Assembly: GCA_964014485.1 (NCBI GenBank) | Contig: CAXHAT010000018.1 | Location: 1 to 58,246, forward strand | DNA from: an uncultured Deferribacteres bacterium | GTDB taxonomy: Bacteria > Zhuqueibacterota > Zhuqueibacteria > Zhuqueibacterales > Geothermadaptataceae | Direction of reading: 5' to 3' | DNA: 58,246 nt | In this document: piece after piece, positions 1,896 through 15,633 of the stretch | Layout: every line of letters begins with the position of its first letter | Position numbering within the stretch: the first letter of the stretch is position 1 | The notes under the pieces: generated by a model | What the model was told of the DNA's origin: nothing | Database searches by the model: none | The model's input: the letters and a program-made list of their open reading frames with translations, nothing else | Program-made: the position numbers and the translations under genes

Positions 1896-4800
1896 CTATT
1901 TCACCACCGTCATCCGCAAACTCTTCACGAAATTCTCACTTCTCAGAACATAATAGTAAATCCCTGAACTCACCGGCAGGCCGGATTCGTTGCGGCCGTT
2001 CCAGGCGGTTTGGTAGAAACCGGCGGGTTTGGTCTCGTTGACCAGCGTGCGTACGCGGCGACCGAGAATGTCGTAGACTTCGAGCACCATGGCTGCGTCT
2101 TTGGCGAGCTGGAATTTGATCCAGGTTTGCTGTGCGCGCGCCGAGAACGGATTTGGATAGTTTTGCGACAACTTGAATTCCTGTGGAGCTAAAACATCGA
2201 TCACGTCCTTCGTCCTCCGCCTTCCGTCCTTCGCGGCGAGAATCGCAGCGGATTCCACGCCAATAACGGCGGCGTAGGCATCGAAATACGTCTCGGCCAT
2301 CACGTCGTAGCCGCGGTCGTTCGGGTGCAGGTCTTCGGCCATGTAGTCGTTGCCGTTGCCCGTAAAAAGATCGGGATTGTTGTCGAACGGCGTGTAGTGA
2401 TCGACCATGTGAACCGGCTCAGACTGACCGGTGATCGCGCCAGCGGCAAAGTCGTCGATCAGGCGGATGATTTCGTCGTTCAATTCCACCGTTTCATTTT
2501 CCCGGTCGCCGCGCGGGACGATTTGGCTGACGAAGATGTGCTCGACAAAATTGCCTTCCGTGCCGTCGCGCCACTGCAGAACGTAATTCACCAATTCGCC
2601 GACATTGCCGGCGGTGGAGTGCGCCATTGTTTGGCCGCCGTTGTTGCTGTAGGGCGAAAGGTTGGTTTCCGCGGTTAAGTCGTTGGCGCCGAGATGGATC
2701 ATCACGACAGACGGCTGGTACAAGTCGAGCGTCTCGGCAAGATCGTTCACGCCAGTGCCGGAGCCGTTGCCAAAACTTTGCGGATAAAAATCTTCGAGGT
2801 TTTGGCCTGGATAAAAATGGCCTTCGTACGGCGACGCGCCTTCCGGCCCGACAAAATCGACGCTTTCCCCCGCTGAGTGCAGCATGTTATACAATTCCGG
2901 GCGGAAGCCCAAACCGTCGGAACTGCCGACGCCGTCGGTGATGGAATTGCCCACCAAAAGAACGCGCTTGCCCGACGCGCCCTCCGGCTTCAATTTCACT
3001 TCGATAGCGTTGATGATCGGATTTTCCAGCACGTTGTTGAAATCAATGTCCAAAACGCCGTCCGTGACCGAAACGTCAAAATTGTAAACCAGCGCCGCGT
3101 CGTGTCCGGCGACAGCGTGAACGTCGAGGTCGTTCAGTACTTGCTGGCCTTCCAAATCCACGTCGAACTTGCGCTTGCCGGATTCCTGGTAGTAGGTTTC
3201 GGCGAAAAGCAATTGCACCGAATACGTCCCGGATTGCGGCACGGTGAAACGATAATGATCGAAGCGGTAGCGATTGAATTGGTACAAAACGTCGTCTTCG
3301 GTGTTAGCCACCGGATCGCTGGTTTCGGCCGTTCCGCTGCGCGAGCCTTTGTAGCCCCACGAGCCGACTTGATACTCTTGATCCGCATCCCAATCGCGCC
3401 CGTCGACGCCGGTGTATTGCCCGTCCGCGACGTTGACGCGCTGCACCCAACTCGCTTCTTCGAGCGTCGTGAAGGTGAAATCATCACTCGTCGCCAGGTT
3501 GCCGCTGGCGTCGCGGGAGAGCACGCGGAAGTGGTAAGTGGTTGAAGGTTCCAGGTTTGAAAGTTGAACGCCGTGCTCAGTTTCCAGCGCAGGGTCGAGC
3601 GTGGTCGCGTCGCCGTAATTCGTGTCGAGGCCGTATTCGACCTGCGAATCCGAGGCTTCGTCGGTGTTCCAGACAATCGACGCGCTGCTCGAAGCGATGT
3701 TTTGCGCGGCGACGTTTGAAATGACCGGCGGCGTTGCGTCCGGCGCGGGCGTGGTGAAAGTAAAATCGCCGCTGGTGGCAAGATTGCCGGAAGCGTCGCG
3801 CGACTTGACCCGGAAATGGTACGTCGTCGAATGTTCCAAATTATCGAGTTGAACATTGTGCGCCGTGACTTGCGCCGGATCGACGGCGGTCGTGCTGCCG
3901 TAACTCGTGTTCGTGCCGTATTCGACCTGCGAATCCGAAGCTTCGTCGGTGTTCCAGGAAATCGTCGCTGATGTTTGCGTTACATTGCTCGACGCGACGT
4001 TTGAAATGACCGGCGGCACCAGATCCGGCCCGGCGGATTTGACTTCGATTCCGGAAATCATTGCGTTTTCGAGCACATTCTGGAAAGTCACGTCGAGCAC
4101 GCCGTCGGTGACTTCGGCTTCGAAAGTATAAACCAGCGCGACGTCATGGCCAACTTCGGCGATAATATCGAGGTCATCAAGAACGCGCGTTCCTTCGATG
4201 GAAACGTCGAAAATGCGCTTGCCCGCTTCTTCGTGATACTCTTCGCAAAAATGCAATTCCACCATGTATTCACCGGCGGACGGCACGGCAAAACGGTACG
4301 CATTGATGCGGTAACGATTGGTTTGGTAGAGCGCGTCATCCTCGGTGTCGGCGATGGCGTGATTCGTATCGCCGGTTCCGCTGCGGCTGCCGTCATAGCC
4401 GAATTCGCCGTCATCTTTCTGGTCGGCGCTCCAAATTCTGCCGTCCACGCCGGTGTATTCGCCGCCGCCAACATTGACCCGCCGCGCAAATCCCGGCGGC
4501 GCGCTGGTGGTGAAAGTAAAATCATCGCTCGTCGCCAAATTGCCCGCCGCGTCACGAGAAAGGACGCGATAATGATAAGTCGTGTTAGCGGTCAGTCCGG
4601 CCAAAGCCTGGCTGTGCGAAGTCACGAGATTCGGATCGAGAATGGTCACGTTGCCGTAATTTGTGTCGGGGCCATACTCGATTTGCGAATCCGCAGCTTC
4701 GTCCGTGTTCCAGACAATGGTTGCGCCGGTCGCGGAGATTTCGTTGGCCTGCACGTTTGAAATCACGGGCGGCGTTTCGTCCGGCGTTGCGGTGGTAAAA

Positions 4801-7800
4801 GTCTGGTCGGCGGAAGACGCGCCGTTGTTGGCGGAGTCCCAGTTCCAGACGCGGAAATGATAGGTTGTCGCGGGGGAAAGCCCGGTCAAAATCACGCTGT
4901 GCTGCGTGGTCAAATCGGTTTCCAACGCCGTCCAGGAACCGTAGTTTTCGTCCGCGCCAAATTCGATTTGCCGCTGGGCCGGTTCGTCGGTCTGCCAGGT
5001 AATTGTCGCGGATTCGTCGGAGATATTTGTGACTTGAATGTTGGAAATCACCGGCGGCGTTGCGTCGTCCGAGAGCCAGCGCACGCGGTAAACGTTCGCG
5101 TGGGTTTTGCCGAATTCGTCGAAGCCGTTTTCGCCGTAAAGATCGGTAAAATAAAGCGCGTCCGGGCCAAAGGCGAGGCCGAGCACCGTCGCGACCCCGG
5201 CGCCGGTGTAGTTCAGAAACTCGGTTTGATTGACGACCGCGCCGCTTGCGTCCAGTTCAAATGCCTGGATCTTTTTCCCCGAAGAATCGGGGCCGGTGAT
5301 GAACGGATCGGCGACCAAAGCCGCGAACAGCCAGCCGGGAAATTGCGGATCGAAAGGCGTGTTTTCGTTAAAATCAACCGCGCCGGGCACGACGACTTCG
5401 TCCCAGTATTGAATCGCGCCCGTCGTCAAATCGGGATCGATCAAACGCCAGCCGTGATCCTGCCCCGCCTCGATTTTCACCAAACGGTCGCCGGTGTCCG
5501 GGCCGTTGTCGCTGACGTAAAGTTTGCCGTCCGCCGCACGCCACGCACCGCCGAAGGGGTTGCGCATCCCGGTGGCGTAAACGTAGGAATCGGGAAACGG
5601 ATTGTCGCCGGGTTTCGAACCGTCGAGATTGAGCCGCAGAATTTTGCCGCGCAAATCGTTCGGATCGGGCGCGCTCGCGGGCTGCTGGCCGTCGCCGACG
5701 TTAGCGTAGAGCAAGCCGTCCGCGCCGATGGTGAGCGCCTGGATTTGGTGCGAATAATCCGCCGGAATCCCGGTCAAAACATCTTCTTGCGATGAAGACG
5801 TGCGCCCGCCGTCCGTGCTTTTCAAACGAGTAATCTTGCTGAAAATCGCACCGCCGTCTTCGTAATCCAGCGAAACGAGCACGTCGCCGTTGTTAGGATC
5901 GACGACGACGCCGCGCAGTCCGGCCTCGGTTTCGCCGGGATCGAAATTGAGCAAACCGCCGGCGTAGGTCGTTGTTTCGTAATTGCGCTGCACCATCACC
6001 ACCTCGCCCTGCTGCAAAGTGACGTAAAAATATGGATCACTCTCGTTCGGCCCGGGATTCGGGATAAACGCAATGTTCAACGGCAAGTGAAGATCGGTGA
6101 CGACCGGGACGATCTCAAAATTCTCCGGCACGCTCCAACTGTTTTGCGTGTCGCGAATGGTCAAAGTATAAGCCTGCTCTAGCGTCGCCGCGGGGTTTTG
6201 GCTGTCGCTGACGCGAACGGTGAAATTGAAGCCGCCAATCGCCGTTGGCGCGCCGGTGAGCGCGCCGTCCGTTCCCAGAACCAAGCCGTCCGGCAATGCC
6301 CCGCTGGCGATCTCAAAATTGTAGTCCGGCAGCCCGCCCCACACCACGATCTGCTGACTGTAGACAATGTTGATCTCACCGTCAGACAGACCGGTTGTGC
6401 GAAATTCCAGTGCGCGGAACGGCGCAACCGGCGTTTGAACCGCGCCTTGATCGATCCACTTCGCGATCAGGTCGATTTCGTCGTCGGTTAAATTGGCCAT
6501 TTTGCTGCCGACCGACGGATTCGGATTGACGATTTTTTCATGCAGCCAGCTCATCACATGATCGAAAGGCTTGACGAGCAGATAGGTCGGCTCCTGCGTG
6601 CTGGCGACGTTCACGGTTTGTGCGAAAGAAACTTCCGCCGACAAATCCAGATCTGCGGGCGGCGACGGACCGGAATGACAGCGGACGCAATTGCGATCAT
6701 AAATTCCTTGCACGTTGGCGTAGGCGACGTTGCCGTCGGAAGCTGTTGTGAAGAGAAAATCATCGCTGGTCGCCAGGTTGCCACTCGCGTCGCGGGAATG
6801 GACGCGATAGTGGTAGGTGGTTGAAGGTTGAAGGTTTGAAAGTTGAAGGTTGTGTTCGGTGATCAGTGTTGGATCGAGCGCGGTCGTGCTGCCGTAATTT
6901 GTGTCGAGGCCGTATTCGACTTGTGAATCGGCGGCTTCATCCGTGTTCCAGGAGATCATCGCGGAAGATTGCGTCAGCCCGCCCGCTTGCACGTTCGAAA
7001 TCACCGGCGGCGTTGCGTCGATTTCCTGGGTCGTGAAAGTTAAATCCTCACTTGTCGCCAGATTTCCGCTCGTATCTTTCGACAAAACGCGGAAATGATA
7101 GGTCGTTCCTGAACTCAACCCGCCGACGCCGTGCGCATGGTTTTGCACGAAAGCAGGATCGAGCGTCGTCATGCCGCCGTAGGTTGCGTCCGGGCCAAAT
7201 TCGATTTGCGAATCGGCGACTTCGTCGGTGTTCCAGGTCACGGTCACGCTGTCCGGGAAAATTTCCGTCACGACAACATCAGAAATATCCGGCGGCGTGA
7301 GGTCGGGAATGATGGTGGTGAAGGTAAAACCGCTGCTGAGCGCGAGATTGCCGCTTTCGTCTTTCGAGAGGGCGCGATAGTGGTAGGTCGCGCCGGGCGT
7401 CAAGCCGGTCAACTCAACGCTGTGCGACGTCACCAACGCCGGATCGAGCGGACTGATGCTGCCGTAATTCGCGTCGAGGCCGAACTCGACCTGCGAATCG
7501 GCGGGTTCGTCCGTGCTCCAAATGATGGTCGCCGTTTCCGCGCCAACTTCCGTCGCCGCGACATTGCTGATTTGCGGCGGGGCCGTGTCCGCCGCCGAAC
7601 GCACTTCGATGGCGCTGATGATCGCGTTTTCCACGATTTTTCTAAACTCAACATCGAGCACGTCGCCGGTCACGGTCACTTCAAAAGTATAAACCAACGC
7701 CGCGTCATGCCCGGCTTCGGCGATAACGTCGAGATCATCGATAACATTTTGGCCTTCGAGATCGACGTGAAATCGGCGCTTGCCCGCCTCGGTGTGATAT

Positions 7801-10800
7801 TCTTCGCAAAAATGCAGCGTCACGATGTAGTCGCCCGGTTCAACGTCAAAACGGTAGGAATCGAGACGGTAGCGATTGGTTTGGTACAAAACGTCGTCGT
7901 CGGTATTCGCAATCGGATCGTTGGTGTCGCCGGATCCGCTGCGTGAGCCAACGTAGCCGTACGTTCCCGCGCTCCATTTTTTGTCCGCATCCCAAATTTG
8001 TCCATCGCCGTCGGTGTAGCTGCCGCCGCCAACATTCACGCGCTGCTCGTAACTCGGCTGCGGCGGGGCGGGCGTGGTAAAAGTGAAATCATCGCTGATA
8101 GCCTGATTGCCGCTCGAATCGCTTGAAAGCACGCGAAAATGGTAGGTCGTATTCGGCGACAAATCGCTCAGTTGCTGATTGTGCGCCGTGACCAAGTTCG
8201 GATCGTGCGCGGTCAAATTGCCGTAAGCCGTGCTCACGCCAAACTCAACTTGCGAGTCCGCCGCTTCGTCGGTGTTCCATGAAATCGAGGCGCCGGTTGA
8301 AGTGATGTTTGACGAAACGACGTTTGAAATCACCGGCGGCGTTTCGTCGCGTTCCAGCGTGGTGAAAGTGAAATCCGCGCTCAAACCGAGATTGCCGCTG
8401 GCGTCCTTTGAGCGGGCGCGAAAATGGTAGGTCGTGTTCGGTTCAAGCCCGCCAACGCCGTTTTGATGCGCCGTCAAAAGCGCGGGATTCAAGGCGGAAA
8501 AACCGCCGTAATTTTCGTCCAAGCCAAATTCGATTTGATCGTCCGCCGCTTCGTCGGTGTTCCATGTCACGGTCACGCTGTCCGTAAAAACTTCCGTGAC
8601 GACGACGTCCGAAAGCACCGGCGGCGTTTCGTCCGGCGCCAAAGTCGTGAAAGTAAAATCCGTGCTTTGCCCCAAATTTCCGCTGGCGTCACGGGAGAGC
8701 GCGCGGAAATGATAGGTCGTGTTTGAAGCCAAACCGCCAAAACCGACGGTGTGCGTTGTTGTCATCGACGGATCAAGCGCGGAAAAATTGCCGTAGCTTG
8801 CGTCAAGGCCAAATTCAACCTGCGAATCGGAAAGCTCGTTCGTGTTCCAGGTGATTTTCACGCTGTCCAAATAAACTTCCGCGACGGCGACGTTTGAAAA
8901 AGTCGGCGGGGTCAAATCCGGCGCATCCGTCGTAAAAGTGAAGTCGGCGCTCATGCTCAAATTGCCGCTTTCGTCGCGGGAGAGCGTGCGGTAGTGGTAA
9001 GTTGTTCCGGGTTGAAGGTTGGAAAGTTGAACGTTGTGCGCCGTCACCAGAGAAATGTCGAGCGTGGTGATGTTGCCGTAATTTGCGTCGAGACCAAATT
9101 CGACCTGCGAATCCGCCGGTTCGTTGGTGTTCCAGGAAACGGTTGCGCCGGTTTCGCCAATATTGCTTACGTTGACGTTTGAAATCTCCGGCGCGACGCC
9201 GTCCGCTTCCGAGCGTACTTCAATGCCGCTAAGAATAGCATTTTCAAGCACTTTGCGGAAATCAACATCAAGCCTGCCGTCCGTTACTTCGGTTTCAAAT
9301 TCGAAAACCAGCGCTGCGTCGTGCCCCGCTTCTGCGATTACGTCAAGATCGTTGATGACCTGTTGGCCTTCAATATCAACGTCGAATTTTCGTTTGCCGG
9401 ATTCGGTGTAATACTCCTCGCAAAAATGCAATTGCACGAAGTACGTACCGTTTTCAACCGTGAAACGATAGCCGTCGATACGGTAGCGATTCGTTTGATA
9501 AAGCGCGTCCGCGTCGGTGTTGGCGATGGGATCGTTGGTGTCGCCGACGCCGCTTCTTGAGCCGTCGTAGCCCCAATCATTTCCGGCTGACGCTCGATCC
9601 GCCGCCCAAACCGTCCCGTCCGGCGCGGTATAGTCGCCGCCGCCGACATTGACGCGCTGCAAGTAGGACGGCCCGCCAACCGCAGCCGTCCGAAAAACAA
9701 AATCTTCGCTCGGCCCGCGATTGCCCAATTCGTCCGTCGACCACACGCGATAATGATAAATCGTATTTTCCTGCAAGCCGGTCAATTCCTGGTTGTGCGC
9801 AAGCGTGAGCGCCGGATCGAGGGTCGTGAAACTGCCGTAATTTGTATCGAGACCGTACTCAACCTGTGAATCGCCGGGTTCGTCCGTGTTCCAGGAAATC
9901 GTCGCGCTGTTCATGGCGATGTTTTTTGCGGTGACATTGCTGAACGCGGGCGGCGTCTGATCTTCCGGCCTGGTGGTAAAAGTAAAATCGTCGCTGGCTG
10001 CTTGATTTCCTCGCAAGTCGGTTGAAAGAACGCGGAAATGGTAAGTGGTCTCGGGCAGCAAGCCGCCAAGTCCTTGCTCATGCTGGTTCACTGACTCGTC
10101 TTTTCCGACCACCGAGCCGTAATTCGCATCCAAGCCAAATTCGACGTACGTGTCCGCCGCTTCATCAGTATTCCAAACAATGGTGACGCTGTCGGGGAAA
10201 ACATTGCTGGTCTGCACGTCGGAAATGGTCGGAGGCGTAAGATCAGGATCAGTGGTAGTGAAGGTAAAATCTTCGCTCACCGCACGGTTGCCGAATCTGT
10301 CAGTTGAAACAGCTCTAAAATGATAAGTCGTCGAGGGCTGCAAACCGCCAATGCCGTCAAAATGCGTCGTCACCAAATCCGGATCGACTGGCGTGAAATT
10401 GCCGTAGTTTGCGTCCAAACCGTACTCGATCTGCGAATCCGCCAATTCGTCCGTCGTCCAGGGAATGGTCACGCTGTCTTCGAAAACTTCCGTAACGGTC
10501 ACGTCGGAAATGGTCGGTGGGACGAGATCAGGCAGCGTCGCAAAGACGCAATCGGCGCTGACGGACTGATTGCCGTTCAGGTCTTTTGACAAAACGCGTA
10601 AATGGTACGTTGTGTTCGGCTCCAGCCCGGTGATCGTTTGATCGTGGTTTAGCACCAAGGCGGGATCGAGTTCAGAAAAAGTCCCGTATGATAAATCCAG
10701 GCCGTATTCTACTTGTGAATCGGCGTTCTCGTCCGTATCCCAAGTCACGTTCACGGAAGTTTCGGTAATATCGTTGAGGCGAATGTTCGAAATTTCCGGC

Positions 10801-13800
10801 GGAATCTGATCGAGCGGAAAAGTCGTAAAAGTCATGTCGCCGCTGACGGCCAGGTTCCCGGCTCCGTCGCGCGAGAGCACGCGAAAATGATAAGTCGTCT
10901 CCGGTTGCAAATTCTCAAGTTCCTGGGAGTGCATGAAAACAAGCGTATTATCCAACGCCGTCGTGCTGCCGTAATTTTGGTCAAGACCGTATTCGATTTG
11001 TGAGTCGGCTTTTTGATCGGTATCCCAGGTAATCGTCGCGCGATCAGACGATGTGGGCGCAGCAACGATATTCGAAATGGTCGGCGCATTGTTATCACCC
11101 ACGCGCAATTTCACTTCGATGGCGGAAACCAGGGCGTTCTCGATGACATTCCGAAAAGTCACGTCCAGGACGCCGTCCGTCACTTCAACGTCAAAATTGC
11201 GGACATAAGGCGCGTCGTGACCGACCTCGGCGTGAATATCGAGATCATCGAGAACAGTGCTTCCTTCCAGGCTGACGTCAAAAACGCGAAGTCCGTCATC
11301 CTTGTAGTGCGTTTCGGCAAAATGCAATTCAACGGAATAAGTGCCGCTGCCTGGGACGGTGAATCGGTAATCCTTGACGCGAAAACGGTAATTCTGATAG
11401 AGCGCGTCGTCCTCAGTTTGCAGAATTTCGTCGCTGGTCGAGCCGGTCTGAGTGCCGCCGCCGTCGTAGCCCCAAGAGCCTTCAAAATACGATTTATCGG
11501 CGTCCCAGATCCGTCCGTCCCCGCCGGCAAACGAACCCGCGCCGACATTGACGCGCTGGGTGTAATGGGGCGATTCGAGCGTCGTAAACGTGAAATCTTC
11601 GCTCTGGCTTTGATTGCCGTCTTCATCCTTTGAAATCACGCGAAAATGGTAAAGCGTCGCCGGAAGCAGGCTCGTGAGCGTCTGGCTGTGCGCCAGCACC
11701 GGATTCGTGTCGAGCACGGTTGAATTACCGTAATTTGCGTCGAGACCGTACTCAATTTGCGAATCAGAAGGTTCATCAGTGTTCCAGACAATGATTGCGG
11801 TGGTGGAAGCGATGGAATTTACCGAAACGCCGGAGATAATCGGTGCGGTCATGTCAGGCGGCAGCGTGGTAAAACTGCGATTCGAACCCTTCGATTCATT
11901 GCCGTTTGCGTCGCGCGAAACCACGCGATAGTGATAAGTCGATTGCGGGCTTAATCCAGTAATCTGGTGCGTGTGCGCCGTTCGTAATTCCGTGTCCAAG
12001 TCAGAAAAATTGCCGTAAGTTTCATCCGCGCCCCATTCGATTTGCGAGGTCGCCGCTTCATCCGTGCTCCAAGTGATCGTGGCGGTGCGCTGGGAAACAA
12101 TGTCTTCCTGAACGCCAAAAACGAAGGGCGGGGTCGCGTCGTTCAAACCCTCGGTCGAGAGCAAAAGCGCCATGTCCGGGCCTTCGCCGAGCGGTGAGTT
12201 AAATGTGCGCGGTTGGCCATAAGTAATTTTCTCTTCAGCATACTCTTCAAAAGTCGCCGGATTGATCCAGCGCGGCAGAAGCTCGCCGGGGCCGCCGTCG
12301 ATCAACAATTCAACGCCGCCGCCGTTCGGCAAATAAACGACAAACTGCTCGTCGGCTGGAGAAGCGGAGCCCAAAGCGTCGCCGGAAACGATAAAACTGT
12401 TGTCCGGCGCAAGATTTGGCCAATTGACCCGCTGGGTAAAAAATTCATACAAAAAACTGTACTGGCTGGTCTCGGTTTCGCTGCTGTTCACCTCAACTTC
12501 CGCCGATTTGATCATGCTCGTGCCGTCGAAACCGGTCGCGAGAAACGCGCCTGAAACCACCAGCCGCCACGCACCGCGCCGCAAGTAATCGGCGTCAAAT
12601 TGCTGATTGTTTGGCGGATTGTTGTTTCTGCCGTCGAAATGCGCGTAGCCGTATTCCAGGTTCAAGACCGGCTTGTTATGAATGCGATCATATGCCACGC
12701 CTTCTTCCAGACCGGCTGCGTCGCCGAAGCGCGGCAGAAAATCGGGGCCGGAATTCGCACCGTAATGCTGCTGGATGAGTACGTCGATGTCGGGGTAATC
12801 GCCGTAAAGATCGCCCGCCGTGCCGCCCGGAACAATCGGCTGGCCTTCCAAGCTGTAACCGGCGAACGGATGCGTGCCTATGAGGTGGCGGTAAGGATCG
12901 ATGCTGCGAATAAACGTCGCGCGCGCCTTCGACCAGTCAACGTCCGTACCCTGAACCAGGTATTTTCCGTCCGGGTATGTTTCGTATTCATTGGCGATTG
13001 TCCACAAGGCCAGATTTGGGTAGGCCGTATAGCGCGCGACGAGATAACGCAGGAAGTTTTCTTGCTGCTCGTCCGTCATCGGCGGAACGTGGAAAAGGCC
13101 CGCTGCGTCGTAATAATTGAAAAGGATCAGCTCAAACGTCATGCCTTGCGCTAAACCGAATTCGAAGATTGAATCGAGCTTGGCAAAATAGGCCGGATTG
13201 ATGCGGTCGCGATCCGGCGCCGTGCTCGTGCCTTCGTAGGGAATATTCTCATTGAATTCCCATTCCACTTCGATGCGCATGTTGTTGAAATTCTGCGACT
13301 TATGTGCCGAAATTGCCGCTTCATAATCAGATTGCTCGACGTCCATAATGCCGTAGTTTGTCGTCGCCATCCAAAAAAACGGCGTGCCGTCGTCATGCTC
13401 GAGAATATATGGATTCGCTGCGCCAACGCGAATGAATCCGTGCTCCGCAACAGAGGGTTCCGCAGTGAATTCACCGAAAGCGGAGAGACCGTTGTCGCTG
13501 CCGGAAATGTTGAACGTCCATAAACCGGGGGCCGTTGGCGTAAAACGCAGCTTCCAATTGTCGCCGCCGTCCCAGTAGCCGGGAACTTCGTAATTTTCGC
13601 CGGACGGTCCGGTAAAAACGCCGGTGACACTGGCGTCCAGCCATGGATTGCTGTAGTTTCCTTCATCCACAAAATTGAATTCGACAGGCCGCCACTGCAC
13701 GGTTTCCGAAGCGTTTCCGATGACCGTGATATTTGCTGAACCGGATTCTCCGAGACCGTTTTGCGCGGTTGCTGAAATTGTGTTTTCGCCTTCAATCAAC

Positions 13801-14057
13801 GAAATCGTTGCTTGAAACGCGCCGTTTTGAACCGGCACGCGCACTTCGTTGACGTCAATCGAATCCACGGTCGCATCATCAACGGTTCCTTCAACCAATA
13901 ACGATTGTCCCAAAACGGTGGCGCCGTTCTGCGGCGATGTTATTTGCACGTTGGGCGCGATGGGAAGTGAGTTCGCGAAAATTGTAGAGGGTAAAGCGGC
14001 AGGAATCAAAATGAGGGCAAAGGCGAGCAATTTACTCGATGCAAAACGGTCTTTCAT
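1896..14057 (-). CDS. giant secreted multidomain carbohydrate-active/redox protein (Ig, DUF5060, DUF4038, collagen-binding-like, 18x FN3-like, 5x malectin, cytochrome c, Ig, glucose/sorbosone dehydrogenase, SGNH, T9SS CTD)
   Basis: Uninterrupted ORF. ATG at 14057 with GAGGA RBS and a signal peptide. Motifs: DDGTPFFW / WTIANEY / NLEYGY, W-x-T-D-E...TYHFRV repeats, QRVNVGG...LHFxE...R.FDV malectins, CVRCH, GMRNPFG, GNSITDG...DLHP, SQNYPNPF...SGIYYY. Confidence 0.92.
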   Translation of the reverse strand: MKDRFASSKLLAFALILIPAALPSTIFANSLPIAPNVQITSPQNGATVLGQSLLVEGTVDDATVDSIDVNEVRVPVQNGAFQATISLIEGENTISATAQNGLGESGSANITVIGNASETVQWRPVEFNFVDEGNYSNPWLDASVTGVFTGPSGENYEVPGYWDGGDNWKLRFTPTAPGLWTFNISGSDNGLSAFGEFTAEPSVAEHGFIRVGAANPYILEHDDGTPFFWMATTNYGIMDVEQSDYEAAISAHKSQNFNNMRIEVEWEFNENIPYEGTSTAPDRDRINPAYFAKLDSIFEFGLAQGMTFELILFNYYDAAGLFHVPPMTDEQQENFLRYLVARYTAYPNLALWTIANEYETYPDGKYLVQGTDVDWSKARATFIRSIDPYRHLIGTHPFAGYSLEGQPIVPGGTAGDLYGDYPDIDVLIQQHYGANSGPDFLPRFGDAAGLEEGVAYDRIHNKPVLNLEYGYAHFDGRNNNPPNNQQFDADYLRRGAWRLVVSGAFLATGFDGTSMIKSAEVEVNSSETETSQYSFLYEFFTQRVNWPNLAPDNSFIVSGDALGSASPADEQFVVYLPNGGGVELLIDGGPGELLPRWINPATFEEYAEEKITYGQPRTFNSPLGEGPDMALLLSTEGLNDATPPFVFGVQEDIVSQRTATITWSTDEAATSQIEWGADETYGNFSDLDTELRTAHTHQITGLSPQSTYHYRVVSRDANGNESKGSNRSFTTLPPDMTAPIISGVSVNSIASTTAIIVWNTDEPSDSQIEYGLDANYGNSTVLDTNPVLAHSQTLTSLLPATLYHFRVISKDEDGNQSQSEDFTFTTLESPHYTQRVNVGAGSFAGGDGRIWDADKSYFEGSWGYDGGGTQTGSTSDEILQTEDDALYQNYRFRVKDYRFTVPGSGTYSVELHFAETHYKDDGLRVFDVSLEGSTVLDDLDIHAEVGHDAPYVRNFDVEVTDGVLDVTFRNVIENALVSAIEVKLRVGDNNAPTISNIVAAPTSSDRATITWDTDQKADSQIEYGLDQNYGSTTALDNTLVFMHSQELENLQPETTYHFRVLSRDGAGNLAVSGDMTFTTFPLDQIPPEISNIRLNDITETSVNVTWDTDENADSQVEYGLDLSYGTFSELDPALVLNHDQTITGLEPNTTYHLRVLSKDLNGNQSVSADCVFATLPDLVPPTISDVTVTEVFEDSVTIPWTTDELADSQIEYGLDANYGNFTPVDPDLVTTHFDGIGGLQPSTTYHFRAVSTDRFGNRAVSEDFTFTTTDPDLTPPTISDVQTSNVFPDSVTIVWNTDEAADTYVEFGLDANYGSVVGKDESVNQHEQGLGGLLPETTYHFRVLSTDLRGNQAASDDFTFTTRPEDQTPPAFSNVTAKNIAMNSATISWNTDEPGDSQVEYGLDTNYGSFTTLDPALTLAHNQELTGLQENTIYHYRVWSTDELGNRGPSEDFVFRTAAVGGPSYLQRVNVGGGDYTAPDGTVWAADRASAGNDWGYDGSRSGVGDTNDPIANTDADALYQTNRYRIDGYRFTVENGTYFVQLHFCEEYYTESGKRKFDVDIEGQQVINDLDVIAEAGHDAALVFEFETEVTDGRLDVDFRKVLENAILSGIEVRSEADGVAPEISNVNVSNIGETGATVSWNTNEPADSQVEFGLDANYGNITTLDISLVTAHNVQLSNLQPGTTYHYRTLSRDESGNLSMSADFTFTTDAPDLTPPTFSNVAVAEVYLDSVKITWNTNELSDSQVEFGLDASYGNFSALDPSMTTTHTVGFGGLASNTTYHFRALSRDASGNLGQSTDFTFTTLAPDETPPVLSDVVVTEVFTDSVTVTWNTDEAADDQIEFGLDENYGGFSALNPALLTAHQNGVGGLEPNTTYHFRARSKDASGNLGLSADFTFTTLERDETPPVISNVVSSNITSTGASISWNTDEAADSQVEFGVSTAYGNLTAHDPNLVTAHNQQLSDLSPNTTYHFRVLSSDSSGNQAISDDFTFTTPAPPQPSYEQRVNVGGGSYTDGDGQIWDADKKWSAGTYGYVGSRSGSGDTNDPIANTDDDVLYQTNRYRLDSYRFDVEPGDYIVTLHFCEEYHTEAGKRRFHVDLEGQNVIDDLDVIAEAGHDAALVYTFEVTVTGDVLDVEFRKIVENAIISAIEVRSAADTAPPQISNVAATEVGAETATIIWSTDEPADSQVEFGLDANYGSISPLDPALVTSHSVELTGLTPGATYHYRALSKDESGNLALSSGFTFTTIIPDLTPPDISDVVVTEIFPDSVTVTWNTDEVADSQIEFGPDATYGGMTTLDPAFVQNHAHGVGGLSSGTTYHFRVLSKDTSGNLATSEDLTFTTQEIDATPPVISNVQAGGLTQSSAMISWNTDEAADSQVEYGLDTNYGSTTALDPTLITEHNLQLSNLQPSTTYHYRVHSRDASGNLATSDDFLFTTASDGNVAYANVQGIYDRNCVRCHSGPSPPADLDLSAEVSFAQTVNVASTQEPTYLLVKPFDHVMSWLHEKIVNPNPSVGSKMANLTDDEIDLIAKWIDQGAVQTPVAPFRALEFRTTGLSDGEINIVYSQQIVVWGGLPDYNFEIASGALPDGLVLGTDGALTGAPTAIGGFNFTVRVSDSQNPAATLEQAYTLTIRDTQNSWSVPENFEIVPVVTDLHLPLNIAFIPNPGPNESDPYFYVTLQQGEVVMVQRNYETTTYAGGLLNFDPGETEAGLRGVVVDPNNGDVLVSLDYEDGGAIFSKITRLKSTDGGRTSSSQEDVLTGIPADYSHQIQALTIGADGLLYANVGDGQQPASAPDPNDLRGKILRLNLDGSKPGDNPFPDSYVYATGMRNPFGGAWRAADGKLYVSDNGPDTGDRLVKIEAGQDHGWRLIDPDLTTGAIQYWDEVVVPGAVDFNENTPFDPQFPGWLFAALVADPFITGPDSSGKKIQAFELDASGAVVNQTEFLNYTGAGVATVLGLAFGPDALYFTDLYGENGFDEFGKTHANVYRVRWLSDDATPPVISNIQVTNISDESATITWQTDEPAQRQIEFGADENYGSWTALETDLTTQHSVILTGLSPATTYHFRVWNWDSANNGASSADQTFTTATPDETPPVISNVQANEISATGATIVWNTDEAADSQIEYGPDTNYGNVTILDPNLVTSHSQALAGLTANTTYHYRVLSRDAAGNLATSDDFTFTTSAPPGFARRVNVGGGEYTGVDGRIWSADQKDDGEFGYDGSRSGTGDTNHAIADTEDDALYQTNRYRINAYRFAVPSAGEYMVELHFCEEYHEEAGKRIFDVSIEGTRVLDDLDIIAEVGHDVALVYTFEAEVTDGVLDVTFQNVLENAMISGIEVKSAGPDLVPPVISNVASSNVTQTSATISWNTDEASDSQVEYGTNTSYGSTTAVDPAQVTAHNVQLDNLEHSTTYHFRVKSRDASGNLATSGDFTFTTPAPDATPPVISNVAAQNIASSSASIVWNTDEASDSQVEYGLDTNYGDATTLDPALETEHGVQLSNLEPSTTYHFRVLSRDASGNLATSDDFTFTTLEEASWVQRVNVADGQYTGVDGRDWDADQEYQVGSWGYKGSRSGTAETSDPVANTEDDVLYQFNRYRFDHYRFTVPQSGTYSVQLLFAETYYQESGKRKFDVDLEGQQVLNDLDVHAVAGHDAALVYNFDVSVTDGVLDIDFNNVLENPIINAIEVKLKPEGASGKRVLLVGNSITDGVGSSDGLGFRPELYNMLHSAGESVDFVGPEGASPYEGHFYPGQNLEDFYPQSFGNGSGTGVNDLAETLDLYQPSVVMIHLGANDLTAETNLSPYSNNGGQTMAHSTAGNVGELVNYVLQWRDGTEGNFVEHIFVSQIVPRGDRENETVELNDEIIRLIDDFAAGAITGQSEPVHMVDHYTPFDNNPDLFTGNGNDYMAEDLHPNDRGYDVMAETYFDAYAAVIGVESAAILAAKDGRRRTKDVIDVLAPQEFKLSQNYPNPFSARAQQTWIKFQLAKDAAMVLEVYDILGRRVRTLVNETKPAGFYQTAWNGRNESGLPVSSGIYYYVLRSENFVKSLRMTVVK
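2995..12140 (-). repeat. intragenic array of ~95-aa FN3-like (purple acid phosphatase N-terminal-like) repeats interspersed with malectin domains
   Basis: 18 copies of PP.IS.V....W.TDE.ADSQ.EYG.....H...L..L.P.T.YH.RV.S.D..GN...S.DFTFTT counted in the translation; ~285-bp DNA periodicity with shared stretches such as GCCGTATTCGACCTGCGAATCCGA near 3630 and 3915. Boundaries approximate. Confidence 0.9.
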
Positions 14058-14484
14058 GCGATCCTCGGTGTAGTTAACGTGCCGTTGTCTGTTCAACTCG
14101 AAAGCGTTTACATCTCATTCCAACACAGCCATGGCGGTTGTGAGCGTCGGAAAGAGAACAAAAAGCGCAAGCGGCTTAAATTGGGCGCACCAAATCGACG
14201 AATTCTTCGCCGGGAGCCCGTTCGAAAAGCACTTCGCTTTCACAAAAGCTGATCAGTCCATTGATCGTTTGAAAGCAGGATCGTCCCTGAAAATAGACAA
14301 AATATAATCGGATGAGACGTCCGTACTCTTCATGCGGCGAATCAGTCCGATTTTTTTAGAAATGTTCTGTTTATGGTTTGGTCGCCAGATTAACTTTTAA
14401 TAGCTGCAAAGCATGTTATTGCGCACTTCATTAGGCGTTAGAAGACGAAGATTTGACTCGATTGTGTAAATCCGTGCGGCGCAT

Positions 14485-15471
14485 TTATTTCAAAACTTCG
14501 GTTTGAGGGTTGTTCAAGCTCCAGTTATACCAAAATGTGTCGAAGCCGGTAAACACGCGCAACTCGGATTTATCATTTTTTTCAAATGTTTTTGATTCCG
14601 GATTGAAAACAAGGCCGGACGCCGTGCGCCATTTTCCGTCCCGCCGCACAAATTCGTCGTTTTCTGCAATAAACGCGACAGTCGATTCAAACATTTTTGA
14701 TTTTGGCGCGCGATACAGAAAAAGACTCGCCTCGCCAACATCAAACATCGCTCCATTTTTCAGTTTTTTCTGTGCTATTGCGTATGCGCGCCCTTTGTAA
14801 TGGAAGGCAAAAACAGGTTCCTTAGTGCGCATGCGCTTATCGTTGGCAAAAAGTCCGCGGTACCCTTCCGGTGAAAGGAAATAACCTTTGTACCCGTCGC
14901 GTCCGTCTTCACGCCCGTCAACGGAGAGCACGAGGGTTTCGGGATGTTGCGCAATCCAGTCTCGCCAGCGCATTTTTTTGCCGTAAGGCAGTTCCTGCAT
15001 TTTTGTCCCTAGTTCGCTTCCTGCAATAGCGGCGCTTTTCATCAATGACCAATAGCTGTCGGTCTCAACGTCCTGCATCACAAGCGAAGCGTTGATGAGT
15101 CCGCCCGAAGGCTCAAAGTGAAATTCTTTGCCGTTGTATTCTCTGCCGTAAACTACGGCGGCATTTGCCAGCGGTCACCAAACTGCCGCGAATGACACTT
15201 CTCCAATGCGATCATTAACCACTTCATGGGCGTTCAATAGATTCAGACTGTACGCTCTTGCCTGCCCGTTAATCACGACTCCCAACACCCAACTGTTTTT
15301 GCTGATTTTTGCGTCAGCGGCAGGCACGTACACTGGCTCATGAATCGCGGCGATTCGGCCTCGAGGTACAATTTGCCGGAAATCTTTCATCGGATTTTCA
15401 GTCTCTTGCGCAAAGGCGCTCGAAGTGACAAAAAGTAATCCCAGGACAACAGCTTTTTTTAGTTTTTGCAT
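14485..15471 (-). CDS. DUF3179 family exported selenoprotein (Sec at codon 99, TGA 15175-15177)
   Basis: ORFs 15175-15522 and 14485-15081 are in the same frame, separated only by TGA. Readthrough gives HEVVNDRIG...AVW-U-PLANAAVVYGRE...FEPSGGLINASLVMQDVETDSYWS, with U at the first Cys of the family CPLC motif. Signal peptide; GGAG RBS before ATG 15471. Confidence 0.88.
15145..15159 (-). promoter_or_regulatory. candidate bacterial SECIS hairpin
   Basis: mRNA GCCGUA-GUU-UACGGC: 6-bp stem starting 15 nt after the UGA with G first in the apical loop, matching bacterial SECIS geometry. Confidence 0.65.
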
Positions 15472-15633
15472 GCTCATCTCCATACAGGTCATTCTAAAAT
15501 CACAAGATTCACAACACGGCAATAGAAAAGATTATTCGCTAAAAACGGCCAAATCGCAGTCATTTTTGAAACGGCAAGGTTCGGCGTATTGAGCGCCGTG
15601 AAATTAATTATTCTTCACGAATTTTTCTTTGAC

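Follow-up and report, generated by a model that had tools for sequence, protein, structure and literature searches.

Can a single bacterial polypeptide hold a glycan, remove its acyl groups, cut its backbone and pass electrons from the product to an acceptor outside the cell? The question is raised by a giant gene on the minus strand of a 58,246-nucleotide stretch of DNA from an uncultured marine Deferribacteres bacterium; this stretch, the window, is the whole of contig C18 of a genome (G000) of 8.4 Mb in 465 contigs, 97% complete. A first-pass annotation, made from the letters of the window, had read positions 1896..14057 as one secreted chain of about 4050 amino acids (aa) joining a glycoside hydrolase, an esterase, a sugar dehydrogenase, haem c and five malectins. 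The chain itself is borne out: the list of open reading frames (ORFs) has one uninterrupted ORF at 1896..14096 on the minus strand, 4066 aa from an upstream TTG, and translation from the ATG at 14057-14055 to the stop codon at 1898-1896 gives 4053 aa, over which a recorded protein (P0002) is identical. With modest confidence, we favour reading this product as a multi-enzyme exported by the type IX secretion system (T9SS), which would grip an acylated, hemicellulose-like glycan with its lectin domains, de-acylate and cleave it, and act on the product with a haem-linked oxidoreductase. Residue numbers below follow the 4066-aa translation (P0001); subtracting 13 gives the numbering from Met-1.

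Domains were called with Pfam on the whole chain and with Pfam and NCBIfam on five cut-outs (Table 1). Every module named at first pass was recovered, and a motif map returned the same blocks of 2/5/4/3/2/2 for the 18 fibronectin type III (FN3) modules, which are of the Pur_ac_phosph_N type (E 9e-155); the nucleotide ranges previously assigned to DUF5060, the barrel, the GSDH propeller and the SGNH module agree with ours to within tens of bases. The C-terminal sorting domain scores 33 bits against a TIGR04183 cut-off of 23, a signal peptide is recognisable by inspection, and the translocon protein SprA is found in the genome (693 bits), features by which the giant protein is a predicted T9SS type A cargo.

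The N-terminal hydrolase unit follows the DUF5060-type plan of clan GH-A glycoside hydrolases (GHs), with an N-terminal DUF5060 sandwich, a barrel with an NE...E pair and a C-terminal sandwich. Its barrel scores 87-91 bits against a PF13204 gathering cut-off of 26.5, and N369 and E370 (in ANE) together with E481 (in NLEYGY) are invariant in an alignment of 40 sequences, in agreement with the earlier proposal that the ANE and LEYGY motifs hold the catalytic glutamates. E370 is the candidate acid/base and corresponds in the alignment to ManDH5 E303, which is mutated in PDB entry 9gpc; E481 is the candidate nucleophile, and the two form a putative Glu/Glu pair of the retaining type.

An AlphaFold (AF2) model of the unit, with a predicted local distance difference test (pLDDT) of 76.6, had members of the ManDH5 / BVU_0362 group at Foldseek ranks 1-7 (best match ManDH5 9gpg, E 1e-31), the order being ManDH5, then BVU_0362 (4n0r), then the GH140 entries 5msy and 8t9w (E 1e-22). 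ManDH5, known here from its entry titles as a DUF5060-containing GH5 beta-mannanase of Dictyoglomus (PDB 9gmj, 9gpa, 9gpc-g), and BVU_0362 have in common with our unit the DUF5060 sandwich, the GH-A barrel, the C-terminal sandwich and the NE...E pair (E 1e-31 to 1e-29, TM-score 0.69-0.77). However, they are stand-alone enzymes of about 510-570 residues that are 18-20% identical to it, and at this level of identity their specificity is not transferable to the barrel of the giant protein.

The kinship with GH140 apiosidases that had been put forward at first pass is thereby displaced as the nearest one. BT_1012 (3kzs, 5msy) resembles the unit in PF13204, in fold and in a C-terminal PF12904-type sandwich, but has no DUF5060, is a poorer structural match than ManDH5 and 4n0r, and has the catalytic pair Asp187/Glu284, according to the available portion of its description (PMC4032388). 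That portion also gives the acid/base site of PF13204 members as Asp in 82% and Glu in 17%. The barrel, with Glu370/Glu481, departs from the BT_1012 type of pair; judged by its residues it is a PF13204 member of the Glu/Glu minority and, for this reason, is not to be filed as an apiosidase.

Among 5.8 billion proteins searched, no other protein of 2236-7116 aa contained a relative of the hydrolase unit, and 273 shorter ones did (E <= 1e-10). The best 120 of these 273 are 33-37% identical to it and are mostly DUF5060-PF13204-PF12904 proteins of 520-1000 aa. Among the matches listed, many carry PF12904, fusions to Peptidase_M14 or to a glucuronoyl-esterase-type domain are frequent, and the few organism names are Verrucomicrobia, Phycisphaerales and Chloroflexi.

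At the opposite end of the chain, the SGNH module exceeds the cut-offs of both PF00657 (23.6 bits) and PF13472 (32.9 bits) and contains blocks I, III and V: S3718 in GNSITDG, N3805 in GANDL and E3921-D3922-L-H3924 in EDLHPN, with Glu, not Asp, as the acid at position -3 to the His. Its nearest solved chain is 2vpt, which we take to be an acetyl-xylan esterase of carbohydrate esterase family 3 (CE3), at E 5e-8 over an alignment limited to residues 22-126. Ser, Asn and His are thus in place and the module, correctly located at first pass, is a predicted esterase; with the residue sets of the hydrolase and the esterase both present, it is not the case that all three enzyme modules have lost their catalytic residues. 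The tail formed by the SGNH module and the C-terminal domain (CTD), motif residues included, is 78% identical to that of a paralogue on contig C16 (L019, G000:C16:38885-45973), a protein of 2363 aa with four malectins, FN3 modules and the same SGNH-CTD tail, whose head, the first ~420 residues, matches no Pfam family.

The five malectins reach 95-112 bits each (PF11721, E 8e-141, 465 bits in total) and are 52-69% identical to one another; the nearest solved structures to malectin 5 are the C-terminal domain of the GH2 enzyme 5uj6 and the animal malectin 2jwp. Identity among the 18 FN3 modules is 39-73%, with a median of 53%.

Inside this array lies a cassette made up of a haem c domain, a He_PIG immunoglobulin-like (Ig) domain and a propeller. 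The giant protein has a single CxxCH, at 2470. In an alignment of 10 cassette sequences, each of C2470, C2473, H2474 and M2533 is retained in 90% or more, the CxxCH and the distal Met in 9 of 10 relatives. In one relative (P0123) the haem domain scores 28.1 bits with Cytochrome_CBB3; the confidence of our model of the haem part is below 50. A haem-attachment family (PF01578, cytochrome c assembly) is present in the genome; a second PF01578 match, at G000:C181:14842-15387, has one in-frame TGA.

The propeller is well above the PF07995 cut-off of 25 bits (102-109 bits), and shares its fold with the soluble dehydrogenases dependent on pyrroloquinoline quinone (PQQ), namely the soluble glucose dehydrogenase (sGDH) of A. 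calcoaceticus (1c9u), 3a9g of P. aerophilum and Asd of E. coli (2g8s). The match to 3a9g has E 1e-25 by sequence and, for the model, Foldseek E 7e-23 with a TM-score of 0.84; the last 157 residues of the propeller find only chance-level matches among solved structures (E >= 0.16). H2783, R2845 and N2846, which do not vary among 10 relatives, align with H144, R228 and N229 of sGDH, presumably the catalytic His and the Arg/Asn acting at the quinone; the equivalents of sGDH Gly247 and Pro248 are kept as well. Four basic residues, R2871, K2941, K2942 and R3006, are conserved in the propeller's own sub-clade. On this evidence the propeller is classed as a divergent sub-clade of the GSDH fold in which pocket residues appear to have changed in a coordinated way.

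Does the combination of modules recur? A 601-residue query (haem domain, He_PIG and propeller), run with HMMER exhaustively against 1.84 billion representatives, matched seven other proteins (853-3057 aa) over the whole cassette with 53-58% identity, two more over most of the stretch (56-58%) and one further protein over the whole at 41%. Nine of these ten have Pur_ac_phosph_N-type FN3 modules and a FlgD_ig T9SS tail (P0141 is without the tail), and some also carry CBM60, GH43_C2 or FG-GAP/ASPIC modules. Across 167 genomes of the phylum, a set that includes the unpublished genomes G158 and G162, the full cassette is confined to the window's own order, where eight genomes have it at 55-58% identity and two at 40-41%; the propeller alone occurs in three genomes of another family. 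A separate scan of contigs with the cassette returned propellers at most 42% identical, none of them matching the haem part of the query. The PF13204-type hydrolase family is more widespread: it occurs in 91 of the 167 genomes, in many cases within frames of 1000-3900 aa, and its closest phylum match to our barrel has 33-34% identity.

Hydrolase and cassette meet again in two relatives. In G154 (same order, other family), three adjacent, co-directional giant T9SS genes at C15:31200-56475 (L119, L120) carry the modules in the arrangements given in Table 1; the barrel of the middle gene is 23% identical to ours (E 4e-15), with SEYE aligned to NEYE. In G165, contig C188 (L121 2636-2832) has a DUF5060-PF13204-CBM60 frame and a CBM60-cassette frame that share ~200 nt in different reading frames; these may be separate genes or a single frameshifted gene (the genome is 59% complete). 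The all-in-one chain, with hydrolase, esterase, cassette and malectins together, was found nowhere else in the searches made. The module set seen at first pass therefore recurs as a kit in relatives of the same order, differently arranged: the association of hydrolase, esterase, malectins and cassette is, as judged from domain content, a recurring theme whose subfamilies and module order vary and whose cassette proteins mostly have no hydrolase. Rearrangement of the same modules on the relatives' giant genes indicates that the kit is real but gives no ground for a fixed order of reactions. The assembly line proposed earlier, which would bind, de-esterify, hydrolyse and then oxidise, was inference only, and in relatives its modules stand in other orders and on separate genes.

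We propose the following course of events for the multi-enzyme reading. The signal peptide would direct the protein to Sec, the periplasm would be the site of haem attachment, and the C-terminal domain would direct type IX export, followed by anchoring at the cell surface or release. Five malectins spaced by 18 tightly packed FN3 modules could then provide a multivalent grip on a polymeric glycan, most likely a detrital polysaccharide of the acylated hemicellulose type. Acyl groups would be stripped by the CE3-like SGNH module, and the N-terminal DUF5060/PF13204 retaining glycosidase would cut the backbone through its Glu/Glu pair. In the least certain step, the haem c/He_PIG/propeller cassette, a putative redox unit conserved in this order, probably oxidises the released sugar or a derivative of it, and electrons would leave the propeller via haem c for an external acceptor.

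Fungi couple glycan hydrolysis to electron transfer with cellobiose and pyranose dehydrogenases (CDH and PDH). A bolder version of our proposal, which we consider doubtful, is that the giant protein is a covalent bacterial counterpart of this fungal pairing of hydrolase and cytochrome-dehydrogenase: a glycosidase and an esterase tethered at the surface would feed a built-in haem c-propeller oxidoreductase from a GSDH sub-clade not recognised before, with a remodelled pocket (three canonical arginines lost; R2871, K2941, K2942 and R3006 gained), so that breakdown would be wired to an extracellular acceptor such as a mineral, humic matter, an outer-membrane cytochrome or an oxidative polysaccharide-cleaving partner.

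A number of observations weigh against the multi-enzyme reading. In our own alignment, on which the audit of its arginines was done, the propeller keeps 44 of 77 positions conserved among 25 diverse canonical GSDH homologues, the other 33 being changed. Compared with sGDH, Q231 is replaced by F, E253 by R, N255 by V, R406 by T and R408 by L. The R406/R408 pair ('GR.R'), which we take to be the ligands of the PQQ carboxylates, is present in 92% of the 26 GSDH homologues aligned and corresponds here to T2970 and L2972, with T or S found there in all ten cassette relatives; the D252-E253-x-N255 motif reads D-R-L-V, its Arg being invariant across the sub-clade. The earlier assignment as a sugar dehydrogenase is uncertain: the fold and the His/Arg/Asn set agree with it, the lack of equivalents of R406/R408 and of the Glu in the DE.N motif does not. 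The nearest propellers outside the order (L030-L033, from Planctomycetaceae, Lacipirellulaceae, Bythopirellula and Catellatospora), 37-42% identical and with the same pocket residues changed in all of them, lie in frames of 716-1347 aa without any CxxCH, from which it follows that a haem partner is not always needed in this sub-clade. The haem domain of the giant protein itself falls below the gathering cut-offs of PF13442 (Cytochrome_CBB3, 20.4 bits against 27) and PF00034 (17.8 against 21.3). No match to pqqC was found in the 97%-complete genome, nor in any of 14 control genomes, and pqqE-like matches are below the cut-off, the controls being uninformative. At the level of gene content, neither PF13204 nor DUF5060 occurs in any of the ten other cassette proteins (E <= 1e-5), so that the hydrolase-cassette link holds in a minority; the G154 modules fall into different subfamilies within the shared Pfam families, their barrels being 23-35% identical to ours; and neither a polysaccharide utilisation locus (PUL) nor a SusCD pair is present in the neighbourhood of the giant gene. 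Taken with the conserved haem partner, a redox role of the cassette is likely; with the PQQ-holding arginines absent and 33 of 77 conserved positions changed, PQQ dependence and sugar oxidation by the propeller are not assured.

Alternatively, the chain could be a polyprotein precursor, exported whole and cleaved afterwards into individual enzymes and lectin/FN3 fragments that would act independently of one another, so that the single chain would serve only for delivery and stoichiometry. The modules are indeed self-contained and encoded by separate genes in relatives, the C16 paralogue shares the SGNH-CTD tail as a cassette, and gingipains are a known example of large T9SS cargo that undergoes processing. 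The FN3 modules, however, run head to tail with a constant period of 95 residues, without linkers and without recognisable cleavage sites, and we regard cleavage into separate products as unlikely.

Less probable again is that the protein is mainly an adhesin or surface fibre, in which the array of lectins and FN3 modules, binding particles or cells, would be the function, with the propeller as an HHIP-like sugar binder and the enzymes as accessories. FN3 and malectin modules do make up about 2,500 of the 4,053 residues, the propeller has lost its canonical PQQ-holding arginines, and among the many giant FN3/lectin T9SS proteins of the genome some gave no enzyme match at the threshold used. 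Yet the Glu/Glu pair of the barrel is invariant, the esterase tail is conserved in the C16 paralogue with its motif residues, and the propeller retains the sGDH-type His/Arg/Asn set, while the conserved CxxCH/Met haem domain, joined to the propeller across the order, would be superfluous in a pure lectin; a mainly adhesive role is accordingly a minor contender.

That several genes were joined into one frame by repeat-driven misassembly is very unlikely: the genome is metagenome-assembled, in many contigs and at low depth, the encoded protein is highly repetitive and a few of the metagenome contigs examined (run X1, labelled marine metagenome) continue into unlike sequence, but the internal DNA repeats are only 60-76% alike with no exact repeat longer than 26 nt, the longest stretch matched exactly at another place in the genome (in the C16 paralogue only) is seen at word length 41 and gone at 55, the X1 contigs cover 30 of 30 bins at >=99% with 0 joints and 0 indels, and the identical 4053-aa protein is recorded on three contigs, the longest of 90,831 bases. 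The three contigs possibly derive from the same source data and do not count as independent evidence; the X1 contigs, all <1 kb, probably from the source sample and at a depth of ~5x, show cover and not an independent span. The repeat-driven chimera that the first-pass annotation had named among its refuting outcomes is not supported by these comparisons.

How does the giant protein, read as a multi-enzyme, compare with known systems? Multi-modular T9SS-linked cellulases have already been described in 'Candidatus Paraporphyromonas polyenzymogenes' (PMC5831590); as far as the available part of that report goes, they are likewise large and secreted, with several carbohydrate-active and binding modules and a type IX sorting domain. 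In comparison, the giant protein is far longer, comes from another phylum, has 18 FN3 modules and five malectins, and contains a DUF5060/PF13204 hydrolase instead of classical cellulases, plus the haem c-propeller cassette. For that cassette the closest parallels are the secreted proteins of Teredinibacter turnerae that combine a carbohydrate-binding module (CBM), GSDH and cytochrome c, which are likened to the fungal pyranose dehydrogenase CcPDH in the accessible text of PMC12055684, and CcPDH itself, an AA8 cytochrome b-AA12 PQQ propeller-CBM1 protein according to the accessible text of PMC4332668. Within the compass of those texts, both resemble our cassette in being extracellular six-bladed propellers with their own cytochrome and carbohydrate-binding modules, working alongside hydrolases; they differ in that the giant protein has haem c and an Ig spacer, places the cassette inside a hydrolase/esterase chain, and has a propeller whose GSDH sub-clade lacks the canonical arginines for PQQ, in a genome where LPMO_10 was not found. 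Clostridial cellulosomes likewise gather numerous enzymes and binding modules on the cell surface, but the present protein is a covalent single polypeptide with T9SS export, and cohesin, dockerin and scaffoldin are absent. The description 'cellulosome-like' given at first pass does not fit, since neither cohesin nor dockerin is among the 22 Pfam families found (E <= 0.01). Its kind, the multi-modular T9SS carbohydrate-active protein, is already known; what is new here is the all-in-one chain, the link, covalent or syntenic, between a DUF5060 hydrolase and the cassette, and the remodelled propeller pocket, and the link between hydrolase and haem-propeller is the most novel part.

Nor is the gene a new system standing by itself, as had been suggested: it is one of many giant mosaics in its genome, which has 111 open frames of at least 1,200 aa, polyketide synthase and non-ribosomal peptide synthetase (PKS/NRPS) genes included (C3, C114), together with no fewer than 150 T9SS tails (of 248 candidates, the 150 given a score all passed), an exceptionally large set of secreted giant proteins. 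Other giant FN3 arrays in the genome carry F5/8-C lectins or metallophosphatase, beta-helix or subtilase modules; the PF13204 domain and the haem-propeller cassette each occur only once, both in the giant gene. The genome's largest open frame (L007, G000:C38:17780-33709; 5310 aa) has only Big_1 and DUF7693 matches, and its second half, 2650 aa, has no Pfam family (both at E <= 1e-6). The G+C content of the giant gene is 55.7%, compared with 50.2% for the genome; horizontal transfer as the cause was rejected, nearly all giant frames of the genome lying at 50-61%.

Around the giant gene lie housekeeping genes, a split DUF3179 gene and the gene for a TPR/transglutaminase protein, and there is a TonB receptor 10 kb away. 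The DUF3179 protein, directly upstream, is spread over two minus-strand frames, 14485-15081 and 15175-15522, which cover profile positions 97-292 and 3-61 and could reflect a frameshift, a pseudogene or an assembly error. Past the stop codon of the giant gene, positions 1-1900 of the window are AT-rich (about 40% G+C, compared with 50% for the genome), and a small DUF3108-like frame lies at 1107-1796.

Table 1. Modules of the giant protein, with window positions, and module content of the three giant genes of G154.
Feature	Position	Strand	Basis or content
Whole coding sequence	1896..14057	-	4053 aa, ATG 14057-14055, stop 1898-1896
Sec signal peptide MKDRFASSKLLAFALILIPAALPSTIFA	13974..14057	-	By inspection: basic n-region, hydrophobic core, A-x-A-like end
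Ig-like domain Glucodextran_B / Big_7, residues 48-126	13719..13955	-	Pfam 59 and 24.9 bits
DUF5060 beta-sandwich, residues 133-198	13503..13700	-	PF16586, 66-69 bits
Clan GH-A (beta/alpha)8 barrel, residues 229-518	12435..13433	-	PF13204, 87-91 bits
C-terminal beta-sandwich of hydrolase unit, PF12904-like	12156..12374	-	Model strands 456-528; no own Pfam match
FN3 modules 1-2	11562..12131	-	Pur_ac_phosph_N/fn3, motif map, alignment
Malectin 1, starts residue 848	11088..11561	-	PF11721
FN3 modules 3-7	9666..11087	-	Pfam, motif map, alignment
Malectin 2, starts residue 1481	9195..9665	-	PF11721
FN3 modules 8-11	8055..9194	-	Pfam, motif map, alignment
Malectin 3, starts residue 2019	7581..8054	-	PF11721
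FN3 modules 12-14	6732..7580	-	Pfam, motif map, alignment
c-type haem domain, C2470-x-x-C2473-H2474, distal M2533	6441..6731	-	Single CxxCH; Cytochrome_CBB3 20.4 bits
He_PIG Ig domain, residues ~2587-2647	6153..6362	-	PF05345, 33.8 bits; between haem domain and propeller
Six-bladed GSDH-fold propeller, Pfam 2688-2915	5076..6134	-	PF07995, 102-109 bits
FN3 modules 15-16	4494..5063	-	Pfam, motif map, alignment
Malectin 4, starts residue 3206	4023..4493	-	PF11721
FN3 modules 17-18	3453..4022	-	Pfam, motif map, alignment
Malectin 5, starts residue 3553	2988..3452	-	PF11721
SGNH module (predicted esterase), residues 3712-3935	2292..2963	-	PF00657 38.5-43.8 bits, PF13472 37.7-39.7 bits
T9SS type A C-terminal sorting domain	1899..2159	-	TIGR04183 33 bits; FlgD_ig 40-43 bits
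G154 gene A, 3006 aa			FG-GAP/ASPIC, FN3, CBM96, SGNH, DUF5060-PF13204, CTD
G154 gene B (middle), 2878 aa			FG-GAP/ASPIC, FN3, DUF5060 and divergent GH-A barrel, cassette, CTD
G154 gene C, 2373 aa			Three malectins, FN3, SGNH, DUF5060-PF13204, CTD

For this lineage, the giant T9SS proteins are best understood as combinatorial shuffles from a shared pool of modules, and a striking architecture alone is not to be taken as a dedicated pathway. The analysis also defines a sub-clade of the GSDH fold whose pocket residues have changed together and which, across a whole uncultured bacterial order, is fused to haem c. If the modules of the giant protein do cooperate, it would offer a test bed for the effects of spacing and multivalent lectin binding on enzyme synergy, and for whether bacteria couple the hydrolysis of extracellular glycans to haem-mediated electron export.

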